DNA of 64,000 nucleotides from Candidatus Uhrbacteria bacterium RIFCSPHIGHO2_02_FULL_46_47 (lineage in GTDB: Bacteria; Patescibacteriota; Patescibacteriia; GWA2-47-26), in NCBI GenBank assembly GCA_001790815.1, contig MGDU01000020.1, positions 14,277-78,276 of the forward strand. Reading direction: 5' to 3'. This document shows positions 11,072-64,000 of this stretch, in pieces; position 1 is the stretch's first letter; each line of letters starts with the position of its first letter. Both the position numbers and the translations under genes were made by a program. Under the pieces are notes generated by a model. The model did not search any database, was not told the DNA's origin, and saw only the letters and a list, made by a program, of their open reading frames with translations.

Positions 11072-11169
11072 ATTGATTATGATACGAATCTACAAATGAT
11101 TGGCGAATCTTCGAATATGCGAATTCGTATATTGGTAGATTCGTCATTAATTCGCTGATTCGTATCGTA

Positions 11170-12561: not shown

Positions 12562-12585
12562 ACTTTATAATATATCAAATTGCGC

Positions 12586-12640
12586 AAAAAATTAAAGACC
12601 GTCCGGATGGTCGTGGGCTTTTGGCCTACACCCGGACGGT
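12586..12640 (-). terminator. Rho-independent terminator (stem ACCGTCCGG/CCGGACGGT followed by a T-run on the minus strand)
   Basis: Perfect 9-bp GC-rich stem followed, on the minus strand, by TTTAATTTTTT. Confidence 0.6.
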
Positions 12641-12805
12641 GAACTCCTCACTAACGATCTGTGCCACAGATGGGTTGAGCTACGGGGCTGTCCCGTGCCA
12701 TTGCCGGATCTGTGTCAAGACCCATCTTCTGAGCTTGCGCTCTTTACATGCGATTTTCACGCATGCGGCCTGAGAGGTAGGCCTGGTGCCGGCGTCGTCG
12801 TCGGG

Positions 12806-12943
12806 CTACTTGCCGCCGTCGAGGTAGTCGAAAAACTCGGTGGCGAGCGCCTTCGGCGGACCCGTGGCCCCCATGATGAACGCGGTCATGTTGTCCTTTC
12901 TGCCCGTGTGGGCTGCTTCGAGGCGACCACCGTGGCCACCCAT
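12806..12943 (-). CDS. Small GC-rich ORF (45 aa, MGGHGGRLEAAHTGRKDNMTAFIMGATGPPKALATEFFDYLDGGK) with its own promoter and terminator
   Basis: Promoter on the minus strand: TTGACA (12982-12977), 17-nt spacer, TAGAGT (12959-12954), then GAAGGTG 5 nt before the ATG. Rho-independent terminator hairpin at 12640-12599 plus a T-run. It is below the 60-aa cutoff of the supplied ORF track. Confidence 0.45.
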   Translation of the reverse strand: MGGHGGRLEAAHTGRKDNMTAFIMGATGPPKALATEFFDYLDGGK

Positions 12944-13229
12944 TTGCACCTTCACTCTACTCCTTTTTCACCTCTTTGTCAAGCCCAAAAAAAGCCGCCA
13001 GCTGAAGACCGCCGCACCAGAACAAGTTCGGTGCAGGACAGGCCGGCGACTACTTCTTACCTCTCTAGGCTGGCGCGCGGTGGCGGCTTGCAGCAAAAAT
13101 GTTGCGCAGGCCGAACAGGCACGGTGCCGAACGAAGTGAGGCGAGTGAGGCCGAGCACAAAGAGCGGGGTGCACGCTGGGCACCCCGACTCTGGTTTTTG
13201 CGCAAGTTGCCGACGCGCGACAGCCGCCC

Positions 13230-13814
13230 CTATCCCCCCAAACTAAACCGTACAAATCTGCGGACTTGGATATTTTCGCCAAGTTTGGAAATTTTACTTT
13301 TGACTACTTCTTCAATAGTGAGGTCTTCATCTTTGATAAATGACTGGCGCATGAGGCAAACATCCGAATACCATTTGTCCAGTTTGCCTTGCACAATTTT
13401 CTCCACAATATTTGCTGGCTTACCTGTCGTTTCTTCACCGTAGATTGATTTTTCTTTTTCAACCACTTCTTGCGGCACATCTTCCGGCTTTACATACAAA
13501 GGATTGGTGGCCGCAATTTGAAGCGCCAGATCATGGGCCAACTCTTCAAATTCCGGATTGCGCGCCACAAAATCAGTTTCACAAAGAAGCTCAACAAGTA
13601 CGCCAACTTTTCCGCCGCCGTGCACATAAGCGTGCACAACCCCTTCGTTGGTTGCGCGCTCGGCTTTTTTGGCGGCCTTAAGCACACCGCTTTTGCGCAA
13701 ATTCGTAGTGGCTTTTTCAATATCGCCTTGAGTTTCCTCCAGCGCTTTTTTCGCGTCAAGCACACCAGCGCCGGTTTGCTCGCGAAGTTGCATGACAAGT
13801 TTTGGATCGATCAT
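13230..13814 (-). CDS. tsf: Elongation factor Ts
   Basis: MIDPKLVMQLREQTGAGVLDAKKALEE... is the UBA-like N-terminus. It lies downstream of rpsB, as is conserved. Confidence 0.92.
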   Translation of the reverse strand: MIDPKLVMQLREQTGAGVLDAKKALEETQGDIEKATTNLRKSGVLKAAKKAERATNEGVVHAYVHGGGKVGVLVELLCETDFVARNPEFEELAHDLALQIAATNPLYVKPEDVPQEVVEKEKSIYGEETTGKPANIVEKIVQGKLDKWYSDVCLMRQSFIKDEDLTIEEVVKSKISKLGENIQVRRFVRFSLGG

Positions 13815-14788: not shown

Positions 14789-14826
14789 GTGTAAATTTTG
14801 AGTCTAAATTTGACTAAAACTTACAC
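14789..14826. repeat. Partial (terminal 37 nt) copy of the 147-bp foldback repeat unit
   Basis: Identical to 15976-16012 (TGTAAATTTTGAGTCTAAATTTGACTAAAACTTACAC). Confidence 0.85.
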
Positions 14827-14902
14827 TGGGAAGTTCTTTGCCAAAATGAAAAAGACCGGCGTCCCGTAGAGAGCCGGCGAGGAAGGAGCGTGGTTGCTGT
14901 GG

Positions 14903-15406
14903 TCAGCGTTGCTGGCGGCCTGCCCGTCGAAGCATGGCGAGAACGTCACGCCGTGCGGTGGCGCCAAGATAATGCTCAGCGTAGAGGTGTTCAATCGCCC
15001 TCTCTGCCTCCTGCATCGTGAGGAGGCTCACTTCAAAGGCGGTGATCAAGACCTTGCCGGTCCGAATCCATGGAAGCCCGAGCTGCTTCGCTGCCGCGAG
15101 TGCCTTGGCATCGTCGATGATCAGAACCGCATCCTCTTCGCGGCCGGCAAGCACAAGGCAAGCTGCTTCGCCCATGTCCAGATCGTAGGTCTGCTCGATC
15201 CCATTGCGCGCCCCAGAGTCTACGGTCATCACCTGGACACAGGTCAGCGAGGCGATCTCAAAGCCGGGACGGGTTTCTCCAGCCCGCGCCACTTCGTTAC
15301 GCACATCTTCCGGAACGATGATAGTTTCAAACAGAACCGGAAGGAGGTCGAGAAGGCCAACCTTGGAAAGCGCGATGATGGGACCGGAATCGACGATGGC
15401 TCTCAT
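14903..15406 (-). CDS. PIN-domain protein (COG2405/DUF3368-type), putative toxin
   Basis: The N-terminal IVDSGPIIALSKVGLLDLL pattern is typical of COG2405 PIN proteins. It overlaps the upstream UPF0175 gene by 4 nt. The locus is GC-rich. Confidence 0.65.
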   Translation of the reverse strand: MRAIVDSGPIIALSKVGLLDLLPVLFETIIVPEDVRNEVARAGETRPGFEIASLTCVQVMTVDSGARNGIEQTYDLDMGEAACLVLAGREEDAVLIIDDAKALAAAKQLGLPWIRTGKVLITAFEVSLLTMQEAERAIEHLYAEHYLGATARRDVLAMLRRAGRQQR

Positions 15407-15777
15407 GCAACTCTGGATCTGCGCTTGGCATGCGCCTTCATTGCACGCACTATACGCCGATCAGACACCGCTGCCGCCTCCGAATCATCCGCGTAGTACA
15501 AGCCCTCGGCTTTGAGGAGTTCCAGAAACTCCGCAAGTCGCATGCCCAGCGTCTTGGCCGCGACCCCAGCGGAGCAGGAACCTCTCTTGAAGAGGGCGAG
15601 TACAAGCTGACGACGACCCTCGCGAGCTGCCTCCGCCTTGAGCTTCGCGCTCACATGCGTGGGCAACTCGAAATCCACATGTACGCGTGTGGCCACAGTA
15701 GAACCTCCTGTTGTGTGTTGCATAGAGTGAACGGCAGCGTGGGCTGCCAGAAATTGAGAACCGACCTTTATCTTCAC
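15403..15777 (-). CDS. UPF0175 (COG2886) family antitoxin
   Basis: LVLALFKRGSCSAGVAAKTLGMRLAEFLELLKAEGL matches the UPF0175 HTH-like core. It is paired with a COG2405 PIN protein. Confidence 0.6.
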   Translation of the reverse strand: MKIKVGSQFLAAHAAVHSMQHTTGGSTVATRVHVDFELPTHVSAKLKAEAAREGRRQLVLALFKRGSCSAGVAAKTLGMRLAEFLELLKAEGLYYADDSEAAAVSDRRIVRAMKAHAKRRSRVA

Positions 15778-15865
15778 AATACACCTTGGTGCGGAACTCC
15801 GTCAATGCCTCGCGTCTCCGTCGTCTCCCTCTTCGTCTCCACCTGAGCATCGTGTTCCCGCCGAT

Positions 15866-17244: not shown

Positions 17245-18156
17245 TTGTATTTTATGAACCCGGAACTAAAACCATATCAATCCCGCCTTAAAGAACTGGA
17301 AGAGCTTTTCACTTCTCCGGAAGTGCTTTCTGATCCTCAAAAACTTGCGCAGTTAAGCCGTGAATATTCCCAGATCAAAGCTACATTTGCGCGTACTGCA
17401 AAAGCGGGAGATTTAGGCGAGCGTAATGTCATTATGGAAATACGCGCTGGCACGGGTGGGGACGAAGCCGCGCTTTTTGCCGCGCAGCTGTATCGCATGT
17501 ACGCGCGCTTTGCCGAACGGCAAAAATGGGCGGTGCGTGTGGCCTCTTCCAGCCGCACGGATATCGGCGGATTTAAAGAAATCATTTTTTCAATTGAAGG
17601 TAAAGGAGCGTATCGCGCGCTGAAATATGAATCTGGCGTGCACCGCGTCCAGCGCGTTCCGGAAACTGAAAAATCCGGCCGCGTCCATACTTCAACCGCG
17701 ACTGTGGCAGTGCTTCCTGAAGCAGAAGAAGTTGATATTAAAATTGATCCAAAAGATTTGCGCATTGATACCATGACTGCTGGAGGACATGGCGGGCAAT
17801 CAGTCAATACAACCTACTCCGCAGTGCGCATTACGCACATTGCCACCAACCTGGTGGTCATTTGTCAGGATGAACGGTCGCAGCAGCAAAATAAATCCAA
17901 AGCCATGCAAGTTTTGCGCGCGCGGCTTTTTGCTTTGGAGCAGGAAAAAAAGCGGGCAGAAAGAGAGGCGCAGCGGCGCGGACAAATCGGCACTGGCGAG
18001 CGCAGCGAAAAAATCCGCACCTACAATTTTCCCCAAGACCGTGTTACGGATCATCGCGTTAAAGAAAATTTTCACAATTTGCCAAAAATTATGGATGGCG
18101 AAATCAATCCTATCATTGAAACTTTACAAAAAGAAGGAATTGACACACAAAAGTAA
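17245..18156 (+). CDS. prfA: Peptide chain release factor 1
   Basis: GGQ motif ([21 protein letters not shown]) and PxT-region-like sequence. Short CPR-type RF1. Confidence 0.9.
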
Positions 18157-18227
18157 GAGGAGTATTCTCAGGCCAGTCACCGCGGCTCCACTTTGGGGAC
18201 GCGCGGACAAAGATGAGGAGGAGTCCC

Positions 18228-18641
18228 ATGAAGCGAGGGCGATCGAAGACAGAAGCGCTCCGAATCCTGCGGGAACGATTCAAGCGCGGCCAGAAGAACC
18301 GGCACATCCCGAAGGGCGCGAAGTTCCTCTACGGTGTGCGCGGCGGCCATAGCCTGAGGATGCCCTTAGTAGTCTTTCTCATGGCGGATGCGCACGGCAA
18401 GCTCTTCCCTGGAGCCTACGGAGACGTGCCCTTCACGCCCCGTGGCTACAAGCCACCCCCGCGCGAGCGCACGACGCGCGCAACGCCCGCCGCGATACCG
18501 CCCCCGGTCGTGGAAGACCACTCGGGTGATCCCACCACCGCCGACGGTCACGGCTCCGACATGCGCACCGACCGCGACGACACGCGTCAGTCGCCTCTGC
18601 GCCAAACCGGCCCCACCGCCACCGATCCTGCCATCGACTGA
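18228..18641 (+). CDS. Hypothetical basic protein in a GC-rich island
   Basis: Strong SD GAGGAGG 6 nt before ATG 18228. Arg/Pro-rich with no recognisable domain. Confidence 0.4.
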   Translation: MKRGRSKTEALRILRERFKRGQKNRHIPKGAKFLYGVRGGHSLRMPLVVFLMADAHGKLFPGAYGDVPFTPRGYKPPPRERTTRATPAAIPPPVVEDHSGDPTTADGHGSDMRTDRDDTRQSPLRQTGPTATDPAID

Positions 18642-18714
18642 TCTTCCAGTCCACCTGCACAACCAACGAGGAGACCCCGCCCTGCGATCGCACACGCGTG
18701 CTTCGCAGGGCATT

Positions 18715-19806
18715 CTATATTTTGATAATTGCCACACGATCCAATCTTGCCAGATCTTTTACTATTTTTACGCTGGCGCGCGGGAAAAATGTCCGCGCTA
18801 AAATTTTTATGTCGTCGGATTGATGAGGGTCAATTTCGCAAATTACAGACACTCGTAACTCCCCCTCACCCCCTCTTACCCTAAGAGGGGGAATGCCTTT
18901 TGACCCATCTCCTCCCCTTAAGATAAGGGGAGGTTGGGAGGGGTTATGTATTTTTTTCAATTGTTCAAACAATTTTCTATAATAATCCAACCCGGTTTTC
19001 CCTCCATCCAACGCGCCCCTAGGCTCAAAATTGCGCACTTCTGGCATAGCGCCCCGCCATTCACGGGTGGGCAGATACGGAAGATTGGCAGTGATTAGGA
19101 GATGAGTAGGTAGTATGTAGTATGTAGGAGGTAGAAATGGTTTGAGTAGGTTGCCATGGAAAAATTTAATTTTCTCTTCCACACCGTGCTGCTTGGCATT
19201 TTGTTTGGCCACGCGCAATGCCGCACGCGAGATATCAGTGGCAAAAAATGTAATCGCGTCTCCTCGTGGCCAGGCCACGGGTCGCGCCTGCGGCAGTGAC
19301 CTGGCCACTTCCACCGCGATTGCCACCACAATCGCCCCACTGCCAGTTCCAATATCAACAACCGTGTAACGTGTAGCGCGTAACTTGTAACGTGTCATTT
19401 CCTTGAGTGCCTCATCTACCAATATTTCCGTTTCCGGCCGCGGGATAAGCACATTTCTGTTCACTAAAAAATCCAATCCGTAAAATTCTTTGTGCCCGAT
19501 AATATACGCCACCGGCTCATGATTTATCCGTCGCGTGATAAATTGTTTAAAAATTTTGAGCTGCGCAGAGGTCAGTTTTTGCTCCGGATAGCCGTACAGC
19601 CATGCACGCCCCCTCACCTCATTCCTCTCCCTCAGGGAGAGGATGTCCAGTAGGACAGGTGAGGGTGAAACGGCATGCGTCAAAAGCACCTCCGCATCAA
19701 GCGCGGGTGAATCCGTCACTGAGTGATGGGCACCCTTATCACTCAGTGACGACCCGGTTTTTTTCAATTGCGCTATCCCCCACTTTAGCGCTTCGGCAAT
19801 TATCAT
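18715..19806 (-). CDS. prmC: Release-factor glutamine N5-methyltransferase PrmC/HemK
   Basis: VDIGTGSGAIVVAIA (SAM motif I) and the NLPYLP (NPPY) motif. Two in-frame repeat insertions (19611-19674 and 19093-19135). The 3' end reads through family-C elements at 18841-18950, so the native stop is probably near 18960. Confidence 0.8.
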   Translation of the reverse strand: MIIAEALKWGIAQLKKTGSSLSDKGAHHSVTDSPALDAEVLLTHAVSPSPVLLDILSLRERNEVRGRAWLYGYPEQKLTSAQLKIFKQFITRRINHEPVAYIIGHKEFYGLDFLVNRNVLIPRPETEILVDEALKEMTRYKLRATRYTVVDIGTGSGAIVVAIAVEVARSLPQARPVAWPRGDAITFFATDISRAALRVAKQNAKQHGVEEKIKFFHGNLLKPFLPPTYYILPTHLLITANLPYLPTREWRGAMPEVRNFEPRGALDGGKTGLDYYRKLFEQLKKIHNPSQPPLILRGGDGSKGIPPLRVRGGEGELRVSVICEIDPHQSDDIKILARTFFPRASVKIVKDLARLDRVAIIKI

Positions 19807-19812
19807 ATATCT

Positions 19813-21009
19813 CTAATATGACACATTGTATCCGGTTGGCACAATTTCAATCCAAGTTGTGCCGCCGTTAAATTCTATTTCATTGCCTTGCGCGTCATAA
19901 AAGCGCATACGCTCCCGCGCACTTGGCTTTTTCCAAGTGCCAACTGACACGCGCCCGTCTTGGAATACCAATCCTTTGCCTTCGCCAATTGTAGTAAATT
20001 GTTTGCGCCCCAGATCGTCCAGCACTTTCATCTCTTCAAACGCCACCGCGATATTTTTTGTCACAATTTCCCGACCTTGCGCGTCTTTGTGTACCCCACC
20101 CCATTGCATGCGCGTGTATGAATTTCGCGCCTTGTCATAAAGCCACTCCACATTGTATGGCGCGGCATATCCTATCTTAATATCACTTACATTACCGCGT
20201 ACATCCGGCGAGGCATCGCCTTTGAATTTCCATGGATCAATATTTGGAAGCTCAGCTTCCGCAGCTGCGGAAGCTGAGCTTCCAAATATATCATCATATG
20301 CTTTTCTCAAAAGTTCAGAAGAAGTTAATACATTATGCGGCGCAGGACGGCTGGTCACGCGCCGAAAATACTCGCTCTTGTACCATTGATCAAGATCGTG
20401 CACGCCTTCTACTCCCTGTTTTCGAAGCATATCGTATGCCACAGGGCTTGAACCCACATGACCATAAAGCGTATCAAACTCGGAAGCCCAGTCCAGATAA
20501 TATGGTCGTGCTGAGCGTACTGGCCCGATTTCAATGTCCCCCCCTCCCCTAGCCCCTCCCACGGGTGGGGGGGGATTTCCATCTACTTCCTCCACCTTGA
20601 TGGGGGAGGATTGAGGTGGGGGTGGGGGCAATACAAAATATGCTAAAAATCGTGTAATGTTTGCTTCCGTCAGTGCTTCAAAAACAAGATTTGCGTCTGC
20701 AAGACCGGAAATCGGTTGTGCCTCAACCATATTCTCAACCATCACTCCTGCAAACGGCGATTTTTCCTTTCCTGGCTCAACCAGCACTCCGTCAAGCCCT
20801 CTACGCACGGCTGCAACCTCTGCCACTTTTGCCACTTCTGTCACCTTCGGCTTGCGCCAGGGAGCTAATTTCAACATCACCACAAGTACTAAAAAAACAA
20901 GAACCGCAACAAGTACGGTTTCTTTTCGCGCATGATGAAATTTTTTTTTGTTTTTCATTTCTTTATTTTTCTCGTAAAAAGGAGGCGCGGATGCGCGGCG
21001 TTCCCGCAC
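19813..21009 (-). CDS. DUF3048 (YerB-like) domain protein, membrane-anchored
   Basis: N-terminal TM, ...ANITRFLAYF...IGPVRSARPYYLDWA... Contains the in-frame element 20541-20630 and a 48-nt perfect palindrome at 20241-20288. Confidence 0.55.
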   Translation of the reverse strand: MRERRASAPPFYEKNKEMKNKKKFHHARKETVLVAVLVFLVLVVMLKLAPWRKPKVTEVAKVAEVAAVRRGLDGVLVEPGKEKSPFAGVMVENMVEAQPISGLADANLVFEALTEANITRFLAYFVLPPPPPQSSPIKVEEVDGNPPPPVGGARGGGDIEIGPVRSARPYYLDWASEFDTLYGHVGSSPVAYDMLRKQGVEGVHDLDQWYKSEYFRRVTSRPAPHNVLTSSELLRKAYDDIFGSSASAAAEAELPNIDPWKFKGDASPDVRGNVSDIKIGYAAPYNVEWLYDKARNSYTRMQWGGVHKDAQGREIVTKNIAVAFEEMKVLDDLGRKQFTTIGEGKGLVFQDGRVSVGTWKKPSARERMRFYDAQGNEIEFNGGTTWIEIVPTGYNVSY

Positions 21010-33465: not shown

Positions 33466-34338
33466 ATGCAAGCTTATTTAGATATTGTCCGTCATATTTT
33501 AGAGCATGGAGAAATGAAGGAAAACCGTACTGGCGTGCGTGCGCTCACAGTTGCGGGCGCGATGTTTGAGCATGACATGGCGCAGGGCTTCCCCCTGCTC
33601 ACTACCAAAAAAATGCCGTTTAAAGTCATGGCCACGGAATTGGAATTTTTTATTAAAGGCGTGACAGACAAACAGTGGCTTAAAGATCGCAATTGCCATA
33701 TTTGGGATGAATGGGCTTCTCCTAAAAAAGCTCCGTATGGCCATGATGAGCAGTCAAAAAAACGCATGGCGCAGGAGCGAGATTTAGGGCCAGTATACGG
33801 TTTTCAATGGCGGCATTTTGGCGCGCCTTATCATAGCCATGATACAAACTATGATGGACAAGGCGTAGATCAACTGGCAAATCTTGTACAAAAACTCAAA
33901 ACCAATCCAGACGATCGTCGTATGATTGTCTGCGCTTGGAATCCAGTGGCTTTGCCGGAAATGGGTTTGCCGCCTTGCCATTACGCCTTTCAAGTAACAG
34001 TTATCAATGGCAAACTTAATCTGCTGTGGAATCAGCGTTCAGTAGATACTATGCTTGGTCTGCCCTTTAACATTTCCAGCTACGCGCTTCTTTTACACTT
34101 GCTTGCTAAAGAAGCAGGGCTGAAAGAAGGAAAACTGGTTGGATTTTTAGGCGATGTGCATATTTATGAAAATCATCTGGACGGCGCGAGAGAACAACTT
34201 ATCCGGGATCCGATGACATATGCGCTTCCCACAATCCAAACTGATCCATGGACTGGTATTTTCAACTGGGAAGCCACCCACACCAAACTCCTTGGCTACG
34301 AAAGTTATCCTAAGATTGAATTCCAAATTGCGGTATAG
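33466..34338 (+). CDS. thyA: Thymidylate synthase (ThyA)
   Basis: ...GPVYGFQWRHFGA...RRMIVCAWNPVALPEMGLPPCHYAFQ... contains the catalytic Cys motif. Confidence 0.95.
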   Translation: MQAYLDIVRHILEHGEMKENRTGVRALTVAGAMFEHDMAQGFPLLTTKKMPFKVMATELEFFIKGVTDKQWLKDRNCHIWDEWASPKKAPYGHDEQSKKRMAQERDLGPVYGFQWRHFGAPYHSHDTNYDGQGVDQLANLVQKLKTNPDDRRMIVCAWNPVALPEMGLPPCHYAFQVTVINGKLNLLWNQRSVDTMLGLPFNISSYALLLHLLAKEAGLKEGKLVGFLGDVHIYENHLDGAREQLIRDPMTYALPTIQTDPWTGIFNWEATHTKLLGYESYPKIEFQIAV

Positions 34339-34357
34339 TACAAGCAACGCACACTCA

Positions 34358-34403
34358 ATTAAAATAAAAAGAACTCCCGCACCAGGATGAACCCAGTGCG
34401 GGA
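34358..34403 (-). terminator. Rho-independent terminator (stem CTCCCGCAC/GTGCGGGAG) for the GC-rich gene
   Basis: 9-bp perfect stem with a T-run on the minus strand (A-run 34355-34370 on plus). It also sits after the thyA stop. Confidence 0.65.
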
Positions 34404-34428
34404 GAGTGCAACATGACCGAAACCGATG

Positions 34429-34890
34429 TTACTCGCTGACCGCGACGAGCCAGTGCCAGCCGCCGCTGAAGGCGCTGCCGACCCAGTCGAAGCCCGAGCG
34501 GCCGTAGCCGTGCACGCACGGGAAGGCGGCGTTGCCGTCCGGATCCGACCACGAGGAGTCGGCCACACCGATCTGACCTTTGCCGTCGGGCTTCCGGTAG
34601 CTGGCCTTGAACGCCTGACGCCACTGGCCCTCGGGGATCTTGCCGTGCGGCGCGAGCTTGCGCTTGACCTCCTCAAAGTCTCGGCAGTAACCGATCGCAA
34701 CGAGCTTGAAGCGGCAGGTCTGCGCGCCCTTGACCACACGGCCGTTGTGCTTCCACTTGCCGGTGTAGCCGTCGGTGTGCACCATCGCAAGCGGCTGGTT
34801 GTCGGACGCGTCGCCGTTGAGGGTGAGCTTGAAGACTTCGCCATCAGCCGGGTAGGCGAAGAACGGCTTCACCTCCGCCTCGCCGCGCAC
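34429..34890 (-). CDS. Hypothetical protein in a GC-rich island (possibly the 3' part of a frameshifted gene that continues at 34869..35057)
   Basis: Diverse, Trp/Lys-containing composition, unlike the overlapping Ala/Arg-rich alternative frames. The upstream 62-aa ORF 34869..35057 is in a different frame but contiguous. Confidence 0.45.
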   Translation of the reverse strand: MRGEAEVKPFFAYPADGEVFKLTLNGDASDNQPLAMVHTDGYTGKWKHNGRVVKGAQTCRFKLVAIGYCRDFEEVKRKLAPHGKIPEGQWRQAFKASYRKPDGKGQIGVADSSWSDPDGNAAFPCVHGYGRSGFDWVGSAFSGGWHWLVAVSE

Positions 34891-35545
34891 GACCGGCAGA
34901 GCCCCGCCGCCGTGTTGCCTTCCGAAAGTTTCTCGACGTCGGCGTTGGTCCAGCCGTTGCGACCAAACGCCAACGCCAGCTCGTGTGCCTGTCCTGTTGA
35001 CATCTGGAACGTGTCACCACTCATGACCTGTTCTCCCTTCTCATGCAACTGGTTCATCGCGAACTGTGTTGCAGTTCATGGCCAGAACCCATTTGTCCCA
35101 GCCTTATTTTGAAGGCAATAAAGCCGCCAAAACAAGGCCAGGAATCCTATTCAAAGAACACATTTTATACTACCATATTTTGGACAAAATGTCAAGAGTG
35201 GTGTAAAATGATGAGTGCAGTATGCAAAAACCACTCATCAATTACGCTTTTATTGGTGATTTTTATTGTCTTGTAAAATATTTTCTTAAGCAAAACAAGT
35301 TTGAACGCCTTATTGTACCAAATCGTTATAAATACTCGGTACTCCTGCACCGAGTCTTCTCCGGTTTGCCACAAATCACATTCATGAACGATTTAAAAAA
35401 TATTCTGGAATATAAAAAGAGCAACACCGGGTCTCCCCGGTGAAGCTCATATCGGGGGGTCTATGCAGAGACGGAACCCTGCACATGCCCTACCCGTAGT
35501 AATTCTAAACATAGTATACCATACCCATAAAAACTGTCAAGAGCT

Positions 35546-41244: not shown

Positions 41245-41288
41245 ATGTTGTCAAAATAGCACGATCGTGTCAATTTGACAACAATTTA
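41245..41288. promoter_or_regulatory. Diverged copy of the 38-nt palindromic motif (ATGTTGTCAA..CGATCG..TTGACAACAATT)
   Basis: Shares the ATGT(T)GTCAA / CGATCG / TTGACA-AATT architecture and abuts the GC-rich island 41290-41650. Confidence 0.45.
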
Positions 41289-41353: not shown

Positions 41354-41590
41354 TCAGCATGAGGATCGATGAGGAGCTTCTTTGCGGAAGCGCCACCAGA
41401 TAATCGGCCATGCGAACAGCACGATCGTGACTCGAGAACTCGTCTGAAACAGAATTCCCTTGTCCTCCGAACCAGTGCGGCGCATCTCCTCCCACGTCAT
41501 TCCTGTGAGCCGCATCTCAAGGCGCACCATGACCACGATGCCGACGACGAGATACATTGCGAACACGAGCGCGATTTGCCAATCCATCAT
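41354..41590 (-). CDS. Small two-TM membrane protein in a GC-rich island
   Basis: MMDWQIALVFAMYLVVGIVVMV...IVLFAWPIIWW. The start was set at the internal MM of track ORF 41354..41617. Confidence 0.4.
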   Translation of the reverse strand: MMDWQIALVFAMYLVVGIVVMVRLEMRLTGMTWEEMRRTGSEDKGILFQTSSRVTIVLFAWPIIWWRFRKEAPHRSSC

Positions 41591-41755
41591 GTACACCTCC
41601 TGCGCGAAGGGTACCACATTTTTGGACTTTTGTCAAGGCCGGGGGGTGTGGTAGAATGAAAAAATGTAGCGCGGGGCTTTATGCCCCGCTTAAGCGGCAC
41701 ACAAGGTGCCGCGCTACCATTGCGCCGGCTAAAGACCGGCGGCTACAATAATCTT

Positions 41756-53280: not shown

Positions 53281-53396
53281 ATTGATGAGTACGTAGTATG
53301 TAGTAGGTAGTGCGTAGTCATTGAATTCGAGCGTAACACCTACGTACTACTTACTACCTTCTACCTACTGACATGATGCATCCTATCACAGCACTC

Positions 53397-53425
53397 TTGA
53401 CAGGGCAAGAAAAAGTTGGTAGTGT
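53397..53425 (+). promoter_or_regulatory. Sigma70-like promoter (TTGACA-17-TAGTGT) for the small ORF 53446..53598
   Basis: Followed by the SD AAGGAGGA 6 nt before the ATG. Confidence 0.5.
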
Positions 53426-53445
53426 AACGATCAAGGAGGAACCAC

Positions 53446-53598
53446 ATGCGAAAAGTACTCGATCTTGCCAGTCTCATCTTCTTTTTCGGCTTCGGGCTCT
53501 TCGCGGCCTTACACGCGGACATGACCGCGGCACGGCAGGCCGCACAGGCCAACTTCACCGCGCCGGCCGGTTCACCCGACTGCGACTGCATGCCATAG
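53446..53598 (+). CDS. Small hydrophobic peptide (50 aa, MRKVLDLASLIFFFGFGLFAALHADMTAARQAAQANFTAPAGSPDCDCMP) in a GC-rich island
   Basis: Perfect SD, promoter and a downstream terminator (53705-53734). Below the ORF-track cutoff. Confidence 0.5.
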   Translation: MRKVLDLASLIFFFGFGLFAALHADMTAARQAAQANFTAPAGSPDCDCMP

Positions 53599-53704
53599 CG
53601 CCATGCCATGGGCACCCATCCTGACCGCTCCTTCTATTCATTCTGCGATTCCGCGGAATTGCAGAACGCCTCGGCGGACACTCTGCACCTCGTCCGCCAA
53701 ATTC

Positions 53705-53734
53705 AAAAAACCATCTCCTGCGAGGTGGTTTTTT
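53705..53734. terminator. Bidirectional rho-independent terminator (AAAAAACCATCTC-CTGC-GAGGTGGTTTTTT)
   Basis: Stem flanked by an A-run and a T-run. Confidence 0.6.
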
Positions 53735-53857
53735 AATTCTCAAATTTCCTCCGGCCGCTACAAATCTGACACGAAACATAGTGCGCAGATTTTCTGCGCC
53801 CGCAGAATTTTGACTCACTAATTTTCTTACATATCAGGCGAGATACGTCTTTTAAAA

Positions 53858-53895
53858 TTATGTCAACTGTGAGCGATCGTTTATATTTGACATAA
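53858..53895. promoter_or_regulatory. Conserved 38-nt palindromic motif (copy 2)
   Basis: Identical to 26328-26365 over the full 38 nt. Confidence 0.6.
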
Positions 53896-54057
53896 TTCCA
53901 TTTTGCCGTGTACTACTGATCCTGCGGCAGATTCATTACGATCGTGGTATTCTTACCGCAAAATAACAGCACGATGAGATGTAAAAAATACAAAAGATCG
54001 CGGAGACTTTGCCCCGCGACCTAATTTTTCGAAAGTTAGGTTCACTCTAGAAAAAAG

Positions 54058-54423
54058 CTAATGCATTCCTTCAATAATATCAATTTCTGGTTTCTCTTTC
54101 ACATTTTTTTGGCTCATGTTTTTATATGCGGCCGCTTCTGCCATCTGTCTTGCTACATTGCTCTCCTTAATGCGCTTTGAGCCGATTCCCATTGCGGCCA
54201 AAAATTCTAACAATGGTTCTTGTGCCTCTGGCTTATTTGCTAAATCAAGATTAAGCAATTTATCAACAGTTTCTGTGCCAAGTTGTCCAAGAAAGTAATC
54301 AGCCTTTTCAGGTGATTTACCAGTATCTAAACCACTTACTCTCAGTCGAGATTCCTGTGCTTTTTCTGGAGCTTTCCCTGTTTCTGCGCCCGGTGGTCGA
54401 TATTTCCCTTCACCTTCTGGCAT
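54058..54423 (-). CDS. Hypothetical small protein, paralogous promoter class A
   Basis: 121 aa. Its upstream module is homologous to that of 30675..31001 but is interrupted by a MITE. Confidence 0.45.
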   Translation of the reverse strand: MPEGEGKYRPPGAETGKAPEKAQESRLRVSGLDTGKSPEKADYFLGQLGTETVDKLLNLDLANKPEAQEPLLEFLAAMGIGSKRIKESNVARQMAEAAAYKNMSQKNVKEKPEIDIIEGMH

Positions 54424-54483
54424 AAAATGTTTTCCTAAAAATTATTTCCTTACTAAAATCCTACTCTCTCTCTGGATTGCAAG

Positions 54484-54621
54484 CCCAGTAGTAGAAGTTC
54501 AACTTTGTGCGCGTCAAGCGCGCATTATGAAAATCATTTGTTTGACACCACTTTCCCTTTAAAATAAGGCATTTTAGGGCATGCGAATATAGTTATTTGC
54601 CTGTTGAACTTTCACTACTGG
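54484..54621. mobile_element. 138-bp MITE-like insertion with ~19-bp terminal inverted repeats and a 5-bp target-site duplication (GCAAG)
   Basis: TIRs are CCCAGTAGTAGAAGTTCAAC ... GTTGAACTTTCACTACTGG. The uninterrupted paralogous site at 31041-31060 (GGATTGCAAG|GGGGGGTG) shows the empty target. Confidence 0.7.
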
Positions 54622-54900
54622 GCAAGGGGGGATGTGGATAACTTGGATGCCATTGCTTGACAAAAATGCGTAATATGGTATGCTGAATATGGTTATCAAT
54701 CCATGAGCCACACTCCTATCCGGAGTCAAAAAACAGTCCCGCATTTGCGGGATTGTTTTTCATATTCACAATTTTTGCTATACTTAAGAGTGCACGGAGT
54801 GGCTAGGAGGGTATTGCTATACAGTTTTATAGCCATGGATTGATAACCCATTGACCCCGAAAGGGGTGTGGTGCAACTCCACTGCCCTCCGTGTAAAAAT

Positions 54901-54938
54901 CCCCCCGATGTCCATCGGGGGGATTTTTATTTTCCAAA
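54901..54938. terminator. Bidirectional rho-independent terminator (TCCCCCCGATG-TC-CATCGGGGGGA)
   Basis: 11-bp GC-rich stem flanked by A5 and T-rich runs. Lies 3' of gene 54944..55300. Confidence 0.7.
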
Positions 54939-54943
54939 CTTTT

Positions 54944-55300
54944 TTATTCCTTCTCTTCTTCACCTTCAGTCTCCGCTTCTTCCTTTTTCTCGTGCTTTTT
55001 CTTTTTTGTCGTTTTGCGCTCGCCTCTGCGATCCATTAAGTAACTCCCTACGTATTTAACTCCTTCGGCAATTCCGGCAAAAACATTAAGCGAGCGCTCA
55101 AATTTTTCTTTCAAACTCTCAAAAATACCCAGGGCCTTATTTATTTTTTCCCGCACGTCTTTGGTCATCCCCCGCGCCTCACGCATGATGGAAATAAAAT
55201 AATACAAAAGCCAGCACACAAAAATGGTAAACCAGAGCACGGAAAACGCGAGGACTAGGTAAAAAATATCTTTTGCGTCGGAAATCATATGTTTTGTCAT
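54944..55300 (-). CDS. Hypothetical small membrane protein with an acidic/Lys-rich tail
   Basis: Two TM helices near the N-terminus. Confidence 0.45.
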   Translation of the reverse strand: MTKHMISDAKDIFYLVLAFSVLWFTIFVCWLLYYFISIMREARGMTKDVREKINKALGIFESLKEKFERSLNVFAGIAEGVKYVGSYLMDRRGERKTTKKKKHEKKEEAETEGEEEKE

Positions 55301-55377: not shown

Positions 55378-57963
55378 TTAATTTCTAATCTTTGCCCCAA
55401 ACTTATCCTTTAACATCTTGACCAGTTTCTCGTGCACGCGCTCAGCTTCTTGCGCTGTAAGTGTCCGCTCAGGGCTCACATAACTTAAATGAAAAGCCAC
55501 ACTGCGGCTTCCCTCCGGCACGCCTTTGCCTTCATATAAATCAAATAGCTCGACTTTGTGCAGAAGAGGATCAATTTGCTGTATTGCGGCAACCAGTGTT
55601 GCGTATTCCACAGTCTTTGGTGCCACAAATGCAATATCGCGCTTTACTGGCGGATAAGACAATGGCGCACGATATACCCTCCCGCTTCCAATAAGCGGCA
55701 GAAGCACTTTTGCTTCCCATTCCAAAAATGCTACGCGTTGCTCTATGCCATATGCTTTAAGGAGCGATGGGTGTAATTCCCCTACCACACCTAGTATATC
55801 ACGCCCAGCCTTGCATAACAAAACCCGGCCGGGATGATAGCGGCTGGCCCAGGGTGTCTTTTCTGATTTGGCAATTTTTTCAAATGAAAAATCAGAAAGT
55901 CCAAGCACATATGCTAAATGTTCTGCTATACCCTTGAGTCCAAAAAAGTGCTGACCGTCGCGCTCTTCGCGACCGGCACAGGATACGATAAGTTTTTGTC
56001 GTTCCTCTGGCAACTCACCCATGCGCGGATGGTATTCGCTTGAGAGTTCAAAAAATTTCAACATCTTTCCGGCTTCTTCATTTTTTTTGATTGACAAAAG
56101 CATGGAAATTCCCAGCCATGGCCGCATATGCGTAATTTCAGAGCTTAATGGATTTTGCAAAGCTACTGCATTCTCAACTTTAAGCCCAGCGCGCAATATT
56201 TCATCTGCCGAAATAAATGAGTAAGTATACAATTCAGTAAGACCTGCACCGCGCAAAATTTCCTTTATCATGCGCTCTTGCGCAAATTGTATATTTGGTG
56301 GTTCATCTGGCGGTGCGCCGGCCGGCAATACACTTGGTAGATTATGGTATCCATACATGCGTGCTACTTCCTCCGCAATATCTGCAAGCCCGCCAGCTTC
56401 TATTTCGCGCCAGTATGGAAAGGTCACGCTCCACTTGTTTGCACTGCCAGCAACCTTAAATCCTAATCCAGTTAAATACTTTTTCATCTGTGTTGCCGGT
56501 ATTTCCACGCCGATCATGCGCGAAATATCCTGTGGAGAAACTTTAACCTTGTTCCCCTCACCCTGCCCTCTCCCTAGGGGAGAGGATGGCCGAAGGCCAA
56601 GTGAGGGTTTCCGATCCACAACCTGCACCACTTCCCCGCCAGCCACTTGTTTTGTAAGCTCGGCCAATCGCGCAGCAGCAAATTCCGGCAACTGTGTTGG
56701 CAAACCTTTGTTAAAGCGTGCAGATGAATCGCTGGAAAGGCCAAGCTGATGCTCGCCGCGTCGCACTGTAACCGGATCAAAATTAGCAATTTCATATACA
56801 ATACGCATGGTATCTGCATGCACGCCGGTTTCTTCTCCTCCCATAATTCCAGCAATGGCAACTGGCCGTCCTGCCCCGTAGTGTTGCTTTGCACTACTAC
56901 TGGGGTTGGCATCCGCAATCACTAAAATATTTTCATCAAGATCATAAGTATTTCCATCCAGTGCCAAAATTTTCTCACCCTTCTTCCCCATCCGCACCAC
57001 AATCTCCGTTCGTGTCTGTTCGTCTCCGTTTCGTGTATTGTTCGTGTGTTGCAGCTTTGCTGCATCGAAGGCATGACATGGTTGTCCCCATTCCAAAAGC
57101 ACATAATTTGTAATATCCACGATATTGTTGATCGGCCGCACACCAGAGGCGATCAGTCGTCTTTTCAGCCACCAGGGCGATGGACCAACTTTTACACCCT
57201 CCATCACCACGGCCATATATCGGGGACAAAGTTTCGGCACTTCCACTTTTACCTCTAATGATTTTTGGATTTGGGATTTGGGATTTGTTTGAAATTTGGT
57301 GCTTGGGATTTGGAATTTTACACCCAATATCGCCCCCACTTCCCTTGCCAATCCAATCATTCCCATAGCATCCGGCCGATTGGTAGTGATTTCAATTTCC
57401 ATTACTGTGTCATCAAGACCAAGCGCCTTTGCCAGAGGTGTGCCGGGCTTGGCCTTGGTCCAAGTTAAATCCAAAATCTCGCGTTTCCCACCACCCTCTC
57501 CCTCTCCCCGGGGGAGAGGGTGCAGGGTGAGGGCTTCAAGTCCAATTTCATTTGCCGCGCAAATCATGCCTTCACTTTTTACTCCGCGAATTTCAGTTAT
57601 TTTCATTTCAACCTGTTCTCCTTCTCCATGCCAGCGCACCTTCGCGCCTGGAAGAGCAACAGCCACCAATTGTCCTTCAAACAAATTTGTTCCGCCGCAC
57701 ACAATAGGGACGTTCCCCTTTTTGGTCGCAAAAAGGGGAACGTCCCCTACTTCGACCATCACTACACGCAACTTGTCCGCATTCGGATGTTTTTCAATCT
57801 TCACGATTTTTCCTATCACGATATTTTCCAAACCCTCATCCGTTCTCCACCATCTTTCAACTGAAAAAGCATGCAAAGATAATTTCTGCGCCACTTCTTC
57901 CGGAGACGCTTTTAATCCAGGCAAATATTCACGCAACCAATTGTATGAAACCATTAAATTCAT
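55378..57963 (-). CDS. pheT: Phenylalanyl-tRNA synthetase beta subunit with two in-frame repeat insertions
   Basis: tRNA-binding, B3/4 and B5 domains and the C-terminal FDX-ACB. Insertions at 56546-56612 and 57487-57535. Confidence 0.93.
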   Translation of the reverse strand: MNLMVSYNWLREYLPGLKASPEEVAQKLSLHAFSVERWWRTDEGLENIVIGKIVKIEKHPNADKLRVVMVEVGDVPLFATKKGNVPIVCGGTNLFEGQLVAVALPGAKVRWHGEGEQVEMKITEIRGVKSEGMICAANEIGLEALTLHPLPRGEGEGGGKREILDLTWTKAKPGTPLAKALGLDDTVMEIEITTNRPDAMGMIGLAREVGAILGVKFQIPSTKFQTNPKSQIQKSLEVKVEVPKLCPRYMAVVMEGVKVGPSPWWLKRRLIASGVRPINNIVDITNYVLLEWGQPCHAFDAAKLQHTNNTRNGDEQTRTEIVVRMGKKGEKILALDGNTYDLDENILVIADANPSSSAKQHYGAGRPVAIAGIMGGEETGVHADTMRIVYEIANFDPVTVRRGEHQLGLSSDSSARFNKGLPTQLPEFAAARLAELTKQVAGGEVVQVVDRKPSLGLRPSSPLGRGQGEGNKVKVSPQDISRMIGVEIPATQMKKYLTGLGFKVAGSANKWSVTFPYWREIEAGGLADIAEEVARMYGYHNLPSVLPAGAPPDEPPNIQFAQERMIKEILRGAGLTELYTYSFISADEILRAGLKVENAVALQNPLSSEITHMRPWLGISMLLSIKKNEEAGKMLKFFELSSEYHPRMGELPEERQKLIVSCAGREERDGQHFFGLKGIAEHLAYVLGLSDFSFEKIAKSEKTPWASRYHPGRVLLCKAGRDILGVVGELHPSLLKAYGIEQRVAFLEWEAKVLLPLIGSGRVYRAPLSYPPVKRDIAFVAPKTVEYATLVAAIQQIDPLLHKVELFDLYEGKGVPEGSRSVAFHLSYVSPERTLTAQEAERVHEKLVKMLKDKFGAKIRN

Positions 57964-63184: not shown

Positions 63185-63221
63185 TTTATTTTTCTGTTTT
63201 TTTACGATTTGGGCATCTGAA

Positions 63222-63283
63222 ATTGAAAAAATGCCCGGGGCGAGTTGCCTGCCTGCGGTAGGCAGGCGCGCTCGCCACCGGGC
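63222..63283 (-). terminator. Rho-independent terminator (nested hairpin CCCGGGGCGAG..GCCTGCC-TGCGGTA-GGCAGGC..CTCGCCACCGGG) followed by a T-run on the minus strand
   Basis: Lies 3' of gene 63298..63756. Confidence 0.55.
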
Positions 63284-63297
63284 TCGGGACTACTTGC

Positions 63298-63756
63298 TCA
63301 CCTCGCGCCGACGAGCTCGTCTGCGGTACGGGCATCAAGCTCGGCTTTGAGCAGATCCCACATTCGCGCGACAAGCGTGGTCGCGGCGAGCATTTCCAAC
63401 CACTTTCGTCCGCTCATGAGCGAATGATGGTGCCACCCACGCGTTCCACCCTCATGCACCATGTGGAGAGTGGTGTGGTCGTTTTCTCTTTCGAAAAAGT
63501 GTCCAGACCCGGTGGCTACGATCTGTCCCAAGGTCCTGGACCTGAGCCGCTTTATCTTGGCTATGACGACATCCCACACCATCTCACGCAGATCCTGCAC
63601 GCTGGCCGTGACGTTGCGCTCTCTCGGCAGCGGATCCGTGCCATCCGAGACGATCCGGATGTACTTGAACTCATCCAGCACGAGGCGGATCTTCTGTCGT
63701 GCGATGATATCTCGGGCGATCTTGTCCACCAGATCCAAGTCACGATGCTTCCCCAT
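63298..63756 (-). CDS. Hypothetical protein in a GC-rich island
   Basis: 152 aa with a balanced composition. The SD AGGAGG lies 7 nt upstream of the ATG. Confidence 0.5.
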   Translation of the reverse strand: MGKHRDLDLVDKIARDIIARQKIRLVLDEFKYIRIVSDGTDPLPRERNVTASVQDLREMVWDVVIAKIKRLRSRTLGQIVATGSGHFFERENDHTTLHMVHEGGTRGWHHHSLMSGRKWLEMLAATTLVARMWDLLKAELDARTADELVGAR

Positions 63757-64000
63757 GGTTGTTCCTCCTGTTGTGTTTTCCGCCGCAAGTACGTGCCCTG
63801 GGAAAAAGGCGCGTGGGGAGGCGCATGCCTCCTGGCGGAGTTATGGCCTTTGGGCCATGACTTATTAAGAATGCGCCAAAATTGCGATTTTGTCAAGATT
63901 GGGGTATTATTGATAGACAATACAGATGGTACAAACGGATTCCCTCCCTTAAGGTAAGGGAGGGTTAGGGTGGGTTATGAACCATGCATATCTCGTAACC

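Follow-up and report, generated by a model that had tools for sequence, protein, structure and literature searches.

The short gene that diverges from dnaE in Candidatus Uhrbacteria bacterium RIFCSPHIGHO2_02_FULL_46_47 is best read, with somewhat better than even confidence on our part, as a free-standing single-gene transcription unit for a genuine single-pass membrane peptide of 50 residues, a benign accessory product from a tiny, lineage-restricted family that occupies a variable slot. The stretch of DNA analyzed (64,000 nucleotides of contig MGDU01000020.1, hereafter the window) had been the subject of a preliminary description, which proposed a small membrane peptide gene with its own promoter, Shine-Dalgarno (SD) sequence, and terminator. 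That proposal is supported by a syntenic homologue of the same length, an in-frame coding signal, the GC content of third codon positions (GC3), and a helix predicted by AF2, and the open reading frame (ORF) of 50 amino acids (aa) is probably a genuine coding gene. The promoter hexamers with their 17-nt spacer, the SD, and the ATG that had been claimed could be read directly in the sequence, and the ORF translates exactly to the peptide that had been quoted. The features that make up the gene are these:

53397–53425, plus strand: putative promoter of the peptide gene, with the -35 box TTGACA at 53397–53402, a 17-nt spacer, and the extended -10 element TGgTAGTGT at 53417–53425.
53433–53440, plus strand: SD sequence AAGGAGGA, 5 nt before the ATG at 53446 (a gap of 6 nt when counted from AAGGAGG).
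53446–53598, plus strand: coding sequence (CDS) of the 50-aa peptide MRKVLDLASLIFFFGFGLFAALHADMTAARQAAQANFTAPAGSPDCDCMP, with an ATG start, a homologue (P0122), and frame-specific conservation.

An exhaustive phmmer search of 1.84 billion cluster representatives returned P0122 as the sole real homologue of the peptide, a protein of 50 aa that is 52% identical and aligned over residues 1–50 (E = 6e-7); the third match, a repetitive protein of 1750 aa, was set aside as not meaningful. Word-indexed searches of 5.8 billion proteins, both with the peptide and with a two-sequence profile, recovered nothing beyond the two members themselves. The identical peptide is present on six contigs from Rifle aquifer samples, which are independent assemblies, and the whole intergenic DNA of these contigs is likewise identical, so that they are uninformative on conservation. 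DnaE of the window, encoded beside the peptide gene, is 100% identical to that of Candidatus Uhrbacteria bacterium RIFCSPLOWO2_01_FULL_47_24. P0122 itself is encoded at the syntenic site of a 521-bp contig from Hainich groundwater (L167), where it lies divergent to a dnaE N-terminus with 39 of 41 residues identical to DnaE of the window, and where the TTGACA-17-TAGTGT promoter, an AAGGAGG SD, and a terminator past the ORF are all found. Its start, stop, and length are identical to those of the window peptide. Conservation of the ORF in a related genome, on which the preliminary description had staked its reading beforehand, was therefore found in one other genome.

For a test of coding, the 49 substitutions observed between the window and L167 were placed at random positions, and the resulting protein similarity was compared with that observed. 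In the annotated frame the BLOSUM62 score was 127, whereas the random placements gave 81.5 ± 15.9 (p = 0.0025). No significance was seen in four other frames; antisense frame 2, which has two stops inside, reached p = 0.017. Moreover, similarity between the two loci ends at the stop codon. Specifically, it exceeded that of shuffled controls in the 5′ region (0.75 vs. 0.57 ± 0.03) and in the CDS (0.73 vs. 0.60 ± 0.02) and was at background in the 3′ untranslated region (3′UTR; 0.47 vs. 0.48 ± 0.02). The GC content by codon position was 0.61/0.49/0.75 in both genomes, that is, GC3 > GC1 > GC2, and the CDS showed no excess of RNA structure (z = +0.3 in the window, +1.5 in L167); structured RNA therefore does not explain the GC richness. 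Other occupants of this region were considered and rejected. Two minus-strand ORFs of 84 and 87 aa have no SD, their ends differ in L167, and they carry no significant conservation signal. A structured non-coding RNA across the ORF is contradicted by the positive z-scores of the CDS, structure being confined to the 3′UTR and not conserved in L167. Finally, a known RNA family was rejected because Rfam gave no match at the gathering threshold in the window and four related loci, and E-value mode brought up only sub-threshold matches due to hairpins or the terminator.

Several observations weigh against a conserved membrane peptide gene. The dN/dS between the two genomes is only 0.43, and the spread of differences over the three codon positions (12/18/21) does not strongly suggest coding. 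Conservation is seen between two sequences only, the second of which comes from a 521-bp contig at coverage 1. One of the antisense frames, too, is open in both genomes, which is to be expected where GC is high, and the positive-inside rule does not give a clear topology. Additionally, relatives with 76–82% DnaE identity do not have this peptide, which must therefore be dispensable. On sequence grounds, the family is tiny, with two members, and new, and it was not found outside this Uhrbacteria lineage.

We compared the site across seven related dnaE loci, taken from contigs encoding DnaE proteins 64–82% identical to that of the window. This comparison shows that the gene sits in a variable slot, flanked on one side by the dnaE promoter and on the other by a bidirectional terminator of ancestral origin. 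The former is located as follows:

53381–53408, minus strand: putative dnaE promoter, with the -35 box TTGCCC (reverse complement of 53403–53408), a 17-nt spacer, and the extended -10 element TGaTAGGAT (reverse complement of 53381–53389).

The corresponding block, ATCCTAyCACA...TTGACAGGGCAA, is conserved in L167, L168, L170, L171, L172, and L175, and the cassette-free L174 has a version that has diverged further, ATCTTAACAC...TTGGCAA, the reverse complement of which reads TTGCCA-17-TGtTAAGAT. The left flank of the slot, ATCCTAyCACA...CTTGACAGGGCAA, can thus be read as back-to-back promoters (TTGACA of the peptide gene on the plus strand, TTGCCC-17-TGnTAGGAT of dnaE on the minus strand), and a dnaE promoter at this place would explain why the flank is conserved whatever the slot contains. 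The right flank, ATTCAAAAAACCATCTC...GAGGTGGTTTTTT, is the bidirectional terminator. The order of pheT, a gene for a membrane protein of ~115 aa, and dnaE is conserved in the relatives, the 118-aa ORF at 54944–55300 of the window being the orthologue of the ~115-aa protein (68–90% identity).

What lies between these flanks varies. The window and L167 have the homologous 50-aa peptide, L168 (82% DnaE identity) has an unrelated hydrophobic peptide of 35 aa, and L170 (77%) has an unrelated membrane protein of 81 aa. In L175 (70%), the slot holds an ORF-less leader of ~130 nt and a terminator, followed by another gene, and in L171 (76%) and L174 (70%) it is empty, with the flanks abutting. A tblastx comparison in any frame revealed no cryptic homology among the 50-, 35-, and 81-aa ORFs. 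Among 134 more distant Patescibacteria dnaE loci, no convincing divergent, SD-led small ORF with a transmembrane (TM) segment was present, and the arrangement is therefore clade-specific; DnaE-based scans of genome and metagenome contigs, which were saturated by generic DnaE patterns, added only relatives of ≤60% identity, with nothing similar upstream of dnaE. A tblastn match in L050 (34% over 50 aa, upstream of dnaE) was spurious, as it falls inside a 281-aa protease gene on the other strand. The arrangement in L175 (positions 113–302, reverse) is of interest in itself, comprising a promoter (TTGACA-17-TGcTATACT), leader, terminator, and then SD and ORF, which together are riboswitch- or attenuator-like and have no Rfam match.

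The ORF and 3′UTR form a GC-rich islet (0.60–0.69, vs. 0.46 for the window), and GC3 of the peptide gene is 0.75, compared with 0.42–0.49 in housekeeping genes. In addition, the ORF module is shared with L167 and the 3′UTR module with L168 and L170, so the modules have assorted independently, which argues for recombination. This mosaic and the atypical composition point to an accessory cassette that was probably exchanged or acquired by recombination. An integron-like cassette was rejected, there being neither an integrase nor an attC core.

The expression signals recur with the cassette. The -10 hexamer TAGTGT lies at 53420–53425 and is extended by TG at 53417–53418, and both hexamers and their spacing are identical in L167. 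Variants occupy the same position in L168 (TTGACA-18-TGcTATAGT), L170 (TTGACG-17-TAGTAT), and L175 (TTGACA-17-TGcTATACT), such that a TTGAC(A/G) box, a 17–18-nt spacer, and a TAnnnT box are found at one position in five lineages. Taken alone, the promoter hexamers of the peptide gene are no more than chance: a scan that required four of six -10 matches missed this promoter and returned 3 other sites in 1.5 kb, against 2.3 expected. Each of the four cassettes with an ORF (window, L167, L168, and L170) has AGGAGG 5–8 nt ahead of its start codon. Transcription would start ~7 nt past this strong promoter, with its perfect -35 and extended -10, which appears to stand back-to-back with that of dnaE, and a leader of ~14 nt with a consensus SD would allow efficient translation of the peptide.

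The variability of the slot also bears on the idea, very unlikely in our assessment, that there is no functional protein here, and that any value of the locus lies in the act of transcription or in the 3′UTR RNA, the ORFs being incidental or having arisen de novo in a GC-rich insert. Such a scenario would account for slot content that is unrelated or absent in close relatives while the promoter and part of the 3′UTR persist, for the transcript without an ORF behind the same promoter in L175, and for a family with only two members among 1.8–5.8 billion proteins; further, the chance of an open frame of 50 codons at this GC is ~0.28 by our calculation, and an antisense frame is open too. It fits poorly with the frame-specific conservation (p = 0.0025), the identical start, stop, and length in two genomes with similarity ending at the stop codon, the consensus SD at optimal spacing before four of four ORFs, and the GC3 periodicity, which suits the coding frame. 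It fits poorly as well with the lack of 3′UTR conservation between the window and L167, which have the ORF in common.

Returning to the membrane peptide, its sequence has one hydrophobic stretch (Kyte-Doolittle maximum 2.14), and AF2, run on the two-sequence alignment, predicted a single helix over residues 2–38, with a pLDDT of 87–91 at residues 1–20, and a disordered, low-confidence C-terminal tail that bears the CDC motif. The layout is therefore an N-terminal hydrophobic helix, its helical continuation, and a flexible tail with conserved ANFT and a C-terminal CDCxP. Residues invariant in both homologues include M1, R2, L5, D6, L7, F16, G17, F19, A20, A21, L22, and D25, as well as T27-A29, A35-N36-F37-T38, G42, and C46-D47-C48, then P50. 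The net charge of the tail is acidic or neutral, and tryptic peptides predicted for the product include VLDLASLIFFFGFGLFAALHADMTAAR and QAAQANFTAPAGSPDCDCMP. Database searches identified no family: the only Pfam match at E ≤ 1 was NnrU (12.8 bits vs. a cutoff of 24.7), NCBIfam, PADLOC, and PHROGs gave no match, nor did IMG/VR, GenBank phages, or PLSDB plasmids, and PDB sequences yielded only insignificant matches to a TM segment. By its SD, one TM helix, and frame conservation, the gene fits the generic class of small bacterial membrane protein genes and is presumably translated.

The N-terminal helix (roughly residues 4–22) would insert the peptide in the membrane, leaving a tail of ~26 residues with ANFT and the C-terminal C-D-C-x-P. 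The function of the peptide probably resides in this tail, which could, for example, take part in thiol or metal chemistry or bind a partner. Our best guess is thus a strongly expressed accessory membrane or surface peptide with the ANFT...CDCxP tail as its working part.

The same residues can be read differently, in that the N-terminal 24 may constitute a Sec signal peptide (MRK, a hydrophobic core, and A-L-H-A↓D), from which a peptide of ~26 residues, or a shorter CDCxP fragment, would be released to serve outside the cell in signaling or metal binding, or as an effector directed at the host of the episymbiont. We consider export of this kind quite unlikely. In the window peptide, an n-h-c layout and an AxA-like site can be made out, the conserved positions are concentrated in what would be the mature part (ANFT, CDCxP), and both the strong expression signals and fast evolution as an accessory gene would suit a secreted product. 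The cleavage site, however, is not conserved, the homologue having A-L-S-V↓D with Val at -1, and the AF2 helix runs on through it. Nor are there adjacent receptor, processing, or modification genes, the surroundings being dnaE and orphan ORFs. A precursor of a ribosomally synthesized and post-translationally modified peptide, or a Phr-like signaling peptide, was rejected because the AxA-like site is not conserved in P0122 and no genes with enzyme domains are adjacent, the neighbors being dnaE, an orphan 121-aa ORF, and the conserved 118-aa membrane protein.

Downstream of the membrane peptide ORF, the 3′UTR contains four elements:

53622–53634, plus strand: motif TGACCGCTCCTTC, which holds CTCCTT, complementary to the SD; recognized by cassette comparison.
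53641–53666, plus strand: 26-nt near-palindrome TTCTGCGATTCCGCGGAATTGCAGAA, or stem-loop 1 (11 bp including one G·U, 4-nt loop).
53673–53698, plus strand: stem-loop 2, GGCGGAC-N12-GTCCGCC; recognized by folding and unmentioned in the preliminary description.
53705–53734, both strands: bidirectional intrinsic terminator, with an A-run, the stem ACCATCTC/GAGGTGGT, and a T-run.

Folding of the 3′UTR gave three consecutive stem-loops, namely the palindrome, hairpin 2, and the terminator (z = -4.3). These are predicted to end the mRNA and would probably stabilize it. The terminator, present where it had been described, proved additionally to be bidirectional and older than the gene. It is 80–89% conserved in L168, L170, L171, and L174, and in the empty-slot genomes (L171 and L174) it stands directly past the ~115-aa gene of the pheST operon; it therefore predates the peptide gene. 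Three elements of the window 3′UTR, namely the CCGCTCCTTC motif core, the base of hairpin 2, and the terminator, are shared with L168 and L170, whose ORFs are unrelated, and not with L167. The full 13-nt TGACCGCTCCTTC is shared with L170 only, where it is interrupted by a CCGCTCC duplication. In L168 and L170, a longer hairpin is aligned to the base of stem-loop 2 (GGCG...CGCC), and differences between those two in the shared hairpin break pairs rather than compensate (three sequences in all). A reading of CTCCTT as a minus-strand SD was rejected, since the ORFs behind it are of 15–16 codons or empty and are not conserved.

The 26-nt palindrome is also present as described, with 12 of 13 positions complementary, and it begins 43 nt past the stop codon. 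Its proposed role as an operator-like site was not borne out. It lies downstream of the ORF, and the copy search that had been called for, run across the window and the 178 fetched loci, recovered no other copy. It is missing from L167, L168, and L170, although L168 and L170 share the rest of the 3′UTR, and is thus an insertion in the genome of the window. In the mRNA, the only position that departs from perfect symmetry forms a G·U pair, which fits an RNA hairpin. A transcription-factor operator was rejected accordingly, given no promoter adjacency, no orthologous conservation, and no regulon recurrence, and the most economical reading of the sequence is a 3′UTR RNA hairpin or an inserted palindromic element. 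Only ~0.04 palindromes of such quality are expected per 64 kb (our calculation, uniform base composition). The window contains 42 hairpin-type inverted repeats, of which this is the 12th; two of the eleven ranked ahead of it are in pheT. It may therefore be an inserted element of a kind common in this genome. Long palindromes elsewhere in the window lie at 57487–57533 and 57707–57746 (both in pheT), 20240–20289, and 11078–11169, one of them being perfect over 50 nt, and the two in pheT are apparently translated in frame (e.g., ...PLPRGEGEGGGK...), which suggests that small palindromic elements have been inserted into genes. Additionally, three overlapping arms at 53783–53807 (GCGCAGA / TCTGCGC / CGCAGAA) could pair into either of two hairpins that exclude each other, with TTTT after the second, an arrangement like a terminator/antiterminator toggle. 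These arms and the 3′UTR palindrome share TTCTGCG/GCAGAA half-sites, and 3 of the 12 copies of TTCTGCG in the window are in 53641–53807.

The layout of the locus had been likened to type-I toxin genes. In that scenario, the locus would be a module like a type-I toxin-antitoxin system, with a membrane-damaging peptide held off by fold-back of the 3′UTR on the SD (as in hok and aapA1) and/or by an antisense RNA, the latter arising from convergent transcription through the terminator, either as pheST read-through or from a weak minus-strand start near 53850. Size and shape do fit, with 50 aa and one TM helix, as do the monocistronic locus with a long structured 3′UTR and the convergent layout with a shared terminator. 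Unrelated small hydrophobic ORFs swap at one intergenic site, which is also the case in type-I loci of enterobacteria and Helicobacter, and the CTCCTT motif, the predicted partner of the SD, is kept in the 3′UTRs of three cassettes with unrelated ORFs. There is, moreover, a weak match to a small-RNA-like Rfam model on the minus strand at 53704–53863 (E = 0.014, 24 bits vs. a gathering score of 80).

In the predicted folds, the SD is mostly paired. Across four transcripts, the probability that the SD is unpaired was 0.06–0.25, compared with 0.24 ± 0.15 for dinucleotide-shuffled tails, and the fractions of shuffles at or below the observed values were 0.15, 0.06, 0.15, and 0.59. Occlusion of the SD is thus not significantly stronger than with shuffled tails (Fisher-combined p ~0.08). 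Its predicted partner in both minimum-free-energy and ensemble structures is a CUCCUU-type 3′UTR motif, the exact form of which differs between transcripts. A computational scan found no minus-strand promoter-like site within or overlapping the ORF or 3′UTR (53446–53740), the only such sites being at 53408 (the putative dnaE promoter) and, past the terminator, at 53885, where the match is weak; an RNA with an unusual promoter would escape such a scan. The ~14-nt leader is too short for the metastable 5′ structures of such toxins. Together with the perfect -35, the extended -10, and the perfect SD, it suggests strong unregulated expression, which would be unusual for a lethal peptide. The tail is acidic or neutral, not basic as in many type-I toxins, the gene is single-copy, and Pfam holds no type-I family match at E ≤ 1. 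A search of the literature available to us found no paper mentioning type-I systems together with the Candidate Phyla Radiation (CPR). Judged from the sequence, the resemblance to type-I loci is one of layout only; we regard a toxin as unlikely and a benign accessory membrane or surface peptide as the more likely product.

A broader proposal takes the slot itself as the functional unit. It would be a dedicated expression platform, with a fixed promoter and SD, swappable unrelated membrane peptides (50, 35, and 81 aa), and a shared anti-SD 3′UTR, for post-transcriptionally gated toxins or effectors, or else a site of birth and exchange. We give this proposal little credence. If the swappable peptides proved to be gated toxins, no type-I-like toxin system would have been described in the CPR before this one; under the other reading, the slot would serve for the birth and exchange of new small membrane proteins.

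Other features of the neighborhood were noted. In the minus-strand dnaE leader, a long GTAG-rich hairpin (53291–53367) lies between the putative dnaE promoter and the start codon, and a long inverted repeat in this leader is also present in L168 (2548–3000), L170 (2096–3000), L171 (1632–1944), and L175 (1–445). That of L168 is unrelated in sequence, and those of L170, L171, and L175 share a GTCATTGCGAG...GGCAATCTC element. On the other side, 53740–54940 is an insertion of ~1.2 kb that is missing in all four comparable relatives (L168, L170, L171, and L174), in which the ~115-aa gene abuts the bidirectional terminator directly. The insertion holds the orphan 121-aa ORF (54058–54423, minus strand), with its own terminator at 54022–53995, and ~250 nt of non-coding DNA. 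Within it, at 54806–54891 on the plus strand, ARAGORN called an 86-nt tRNA-Ile(GAU) with the anticodon at position 37, for which the Rfam tRNA model gave no match at the gathering threshold or E ≤ 1. The call is probably erroneous, or else it marks a tRNA-like remnant.

Further GC-rich islets (≥0.58 over 250 nt, in a window of 46% GC) were located at 12581–13290, 14811–15780, 18141–18800, 34311–35120, and 63191–63860. The second includes a UPF0175 antitoxin-like ORF (15403–15696, minus strand; Pfam E = 7e-9), and in three others the ORFs scanned (12695–13246, 34359–35112, and 63424–63957) lack a Pfam match, both of their strands being open. Another free-standing small ORF preceded by AGGAGG (41354–41590, minus strand) encodes 78 aa with two hydrophobic segments, and is intergenic, beside palindromes at 41246–41283 and 41666–41717.

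Overall, the membrane peptide gene is of an ordinary kind and its family is new and tiny; it has a borrowed ancestral terminator and lies in a recombination-prone slot by the dnaE promoter. A two-member orphan family is useful for annotation and not surprising; the variable slot is the most interesting aspect. At this locus, unrelated small ORFs have taken one another's place behind a single conserved promoter, a clean natural case that is informative on the gain, exchange, or birth of small genes. Small membrane proteins tend to be missed in annotation. To our knowledge, almost nothing is known of them in CPR/Patescibacteria, and a literature search on small membrane proteins in Patescibacteria found no paper specific to such a locus among the matches listed. 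Given the reduced genomes and episymbiotic lifestyle of these bacteria, any accessory peptide of the surface or membrane that is strongly expressed is a candidate factor in host interaction or conflict.

Three kinds of known systems bear comparison. Type-I mRNAs with fold-back control are exemplified by hok/sok (PF01848) and Helicobacter aapA1/isoA1, and those with 3′-overlapping antisense RNAs by Bacillus bsrG/SR4 and txpA/ratA. The locus is like these in its 50-aa peptide, N-terminal TM helix, and Cys-containing tail (as in Hok), in its long structured 3′UTR with SD-complementary sequence, and in possible convergent transcription at a shared terminator. It differs in that no antisense RNA gene or promoter was found here and SD sequestration is not significantly above background, and in its very short leader, single copy, and lack of a family match. 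Strain-variable islets exchanged by homologous recombination are comparable in their conserved flanks, alternative or empty contents, atypical GC, and mosaic modules, whereas the slot here is only ~0.3 kb, shows no integrase, attC-like core, or direct repeats, and always places its cargo at the same resident promoter position. Finally, AcrZ, MgrB, MgtS, and CydX of Escherichia coli are small single-pass membrane proteins of ~50 aa or fewer. Although our peptide matches no described family, has a base composition atypical of its genome, and sits in a slot with interchangeable content, it resembles these proteins in size, a single hydrophobic helix, and its own SD, and in being encoded by a free-standing short intergenic gene of narrow distribution that domain databases miss.

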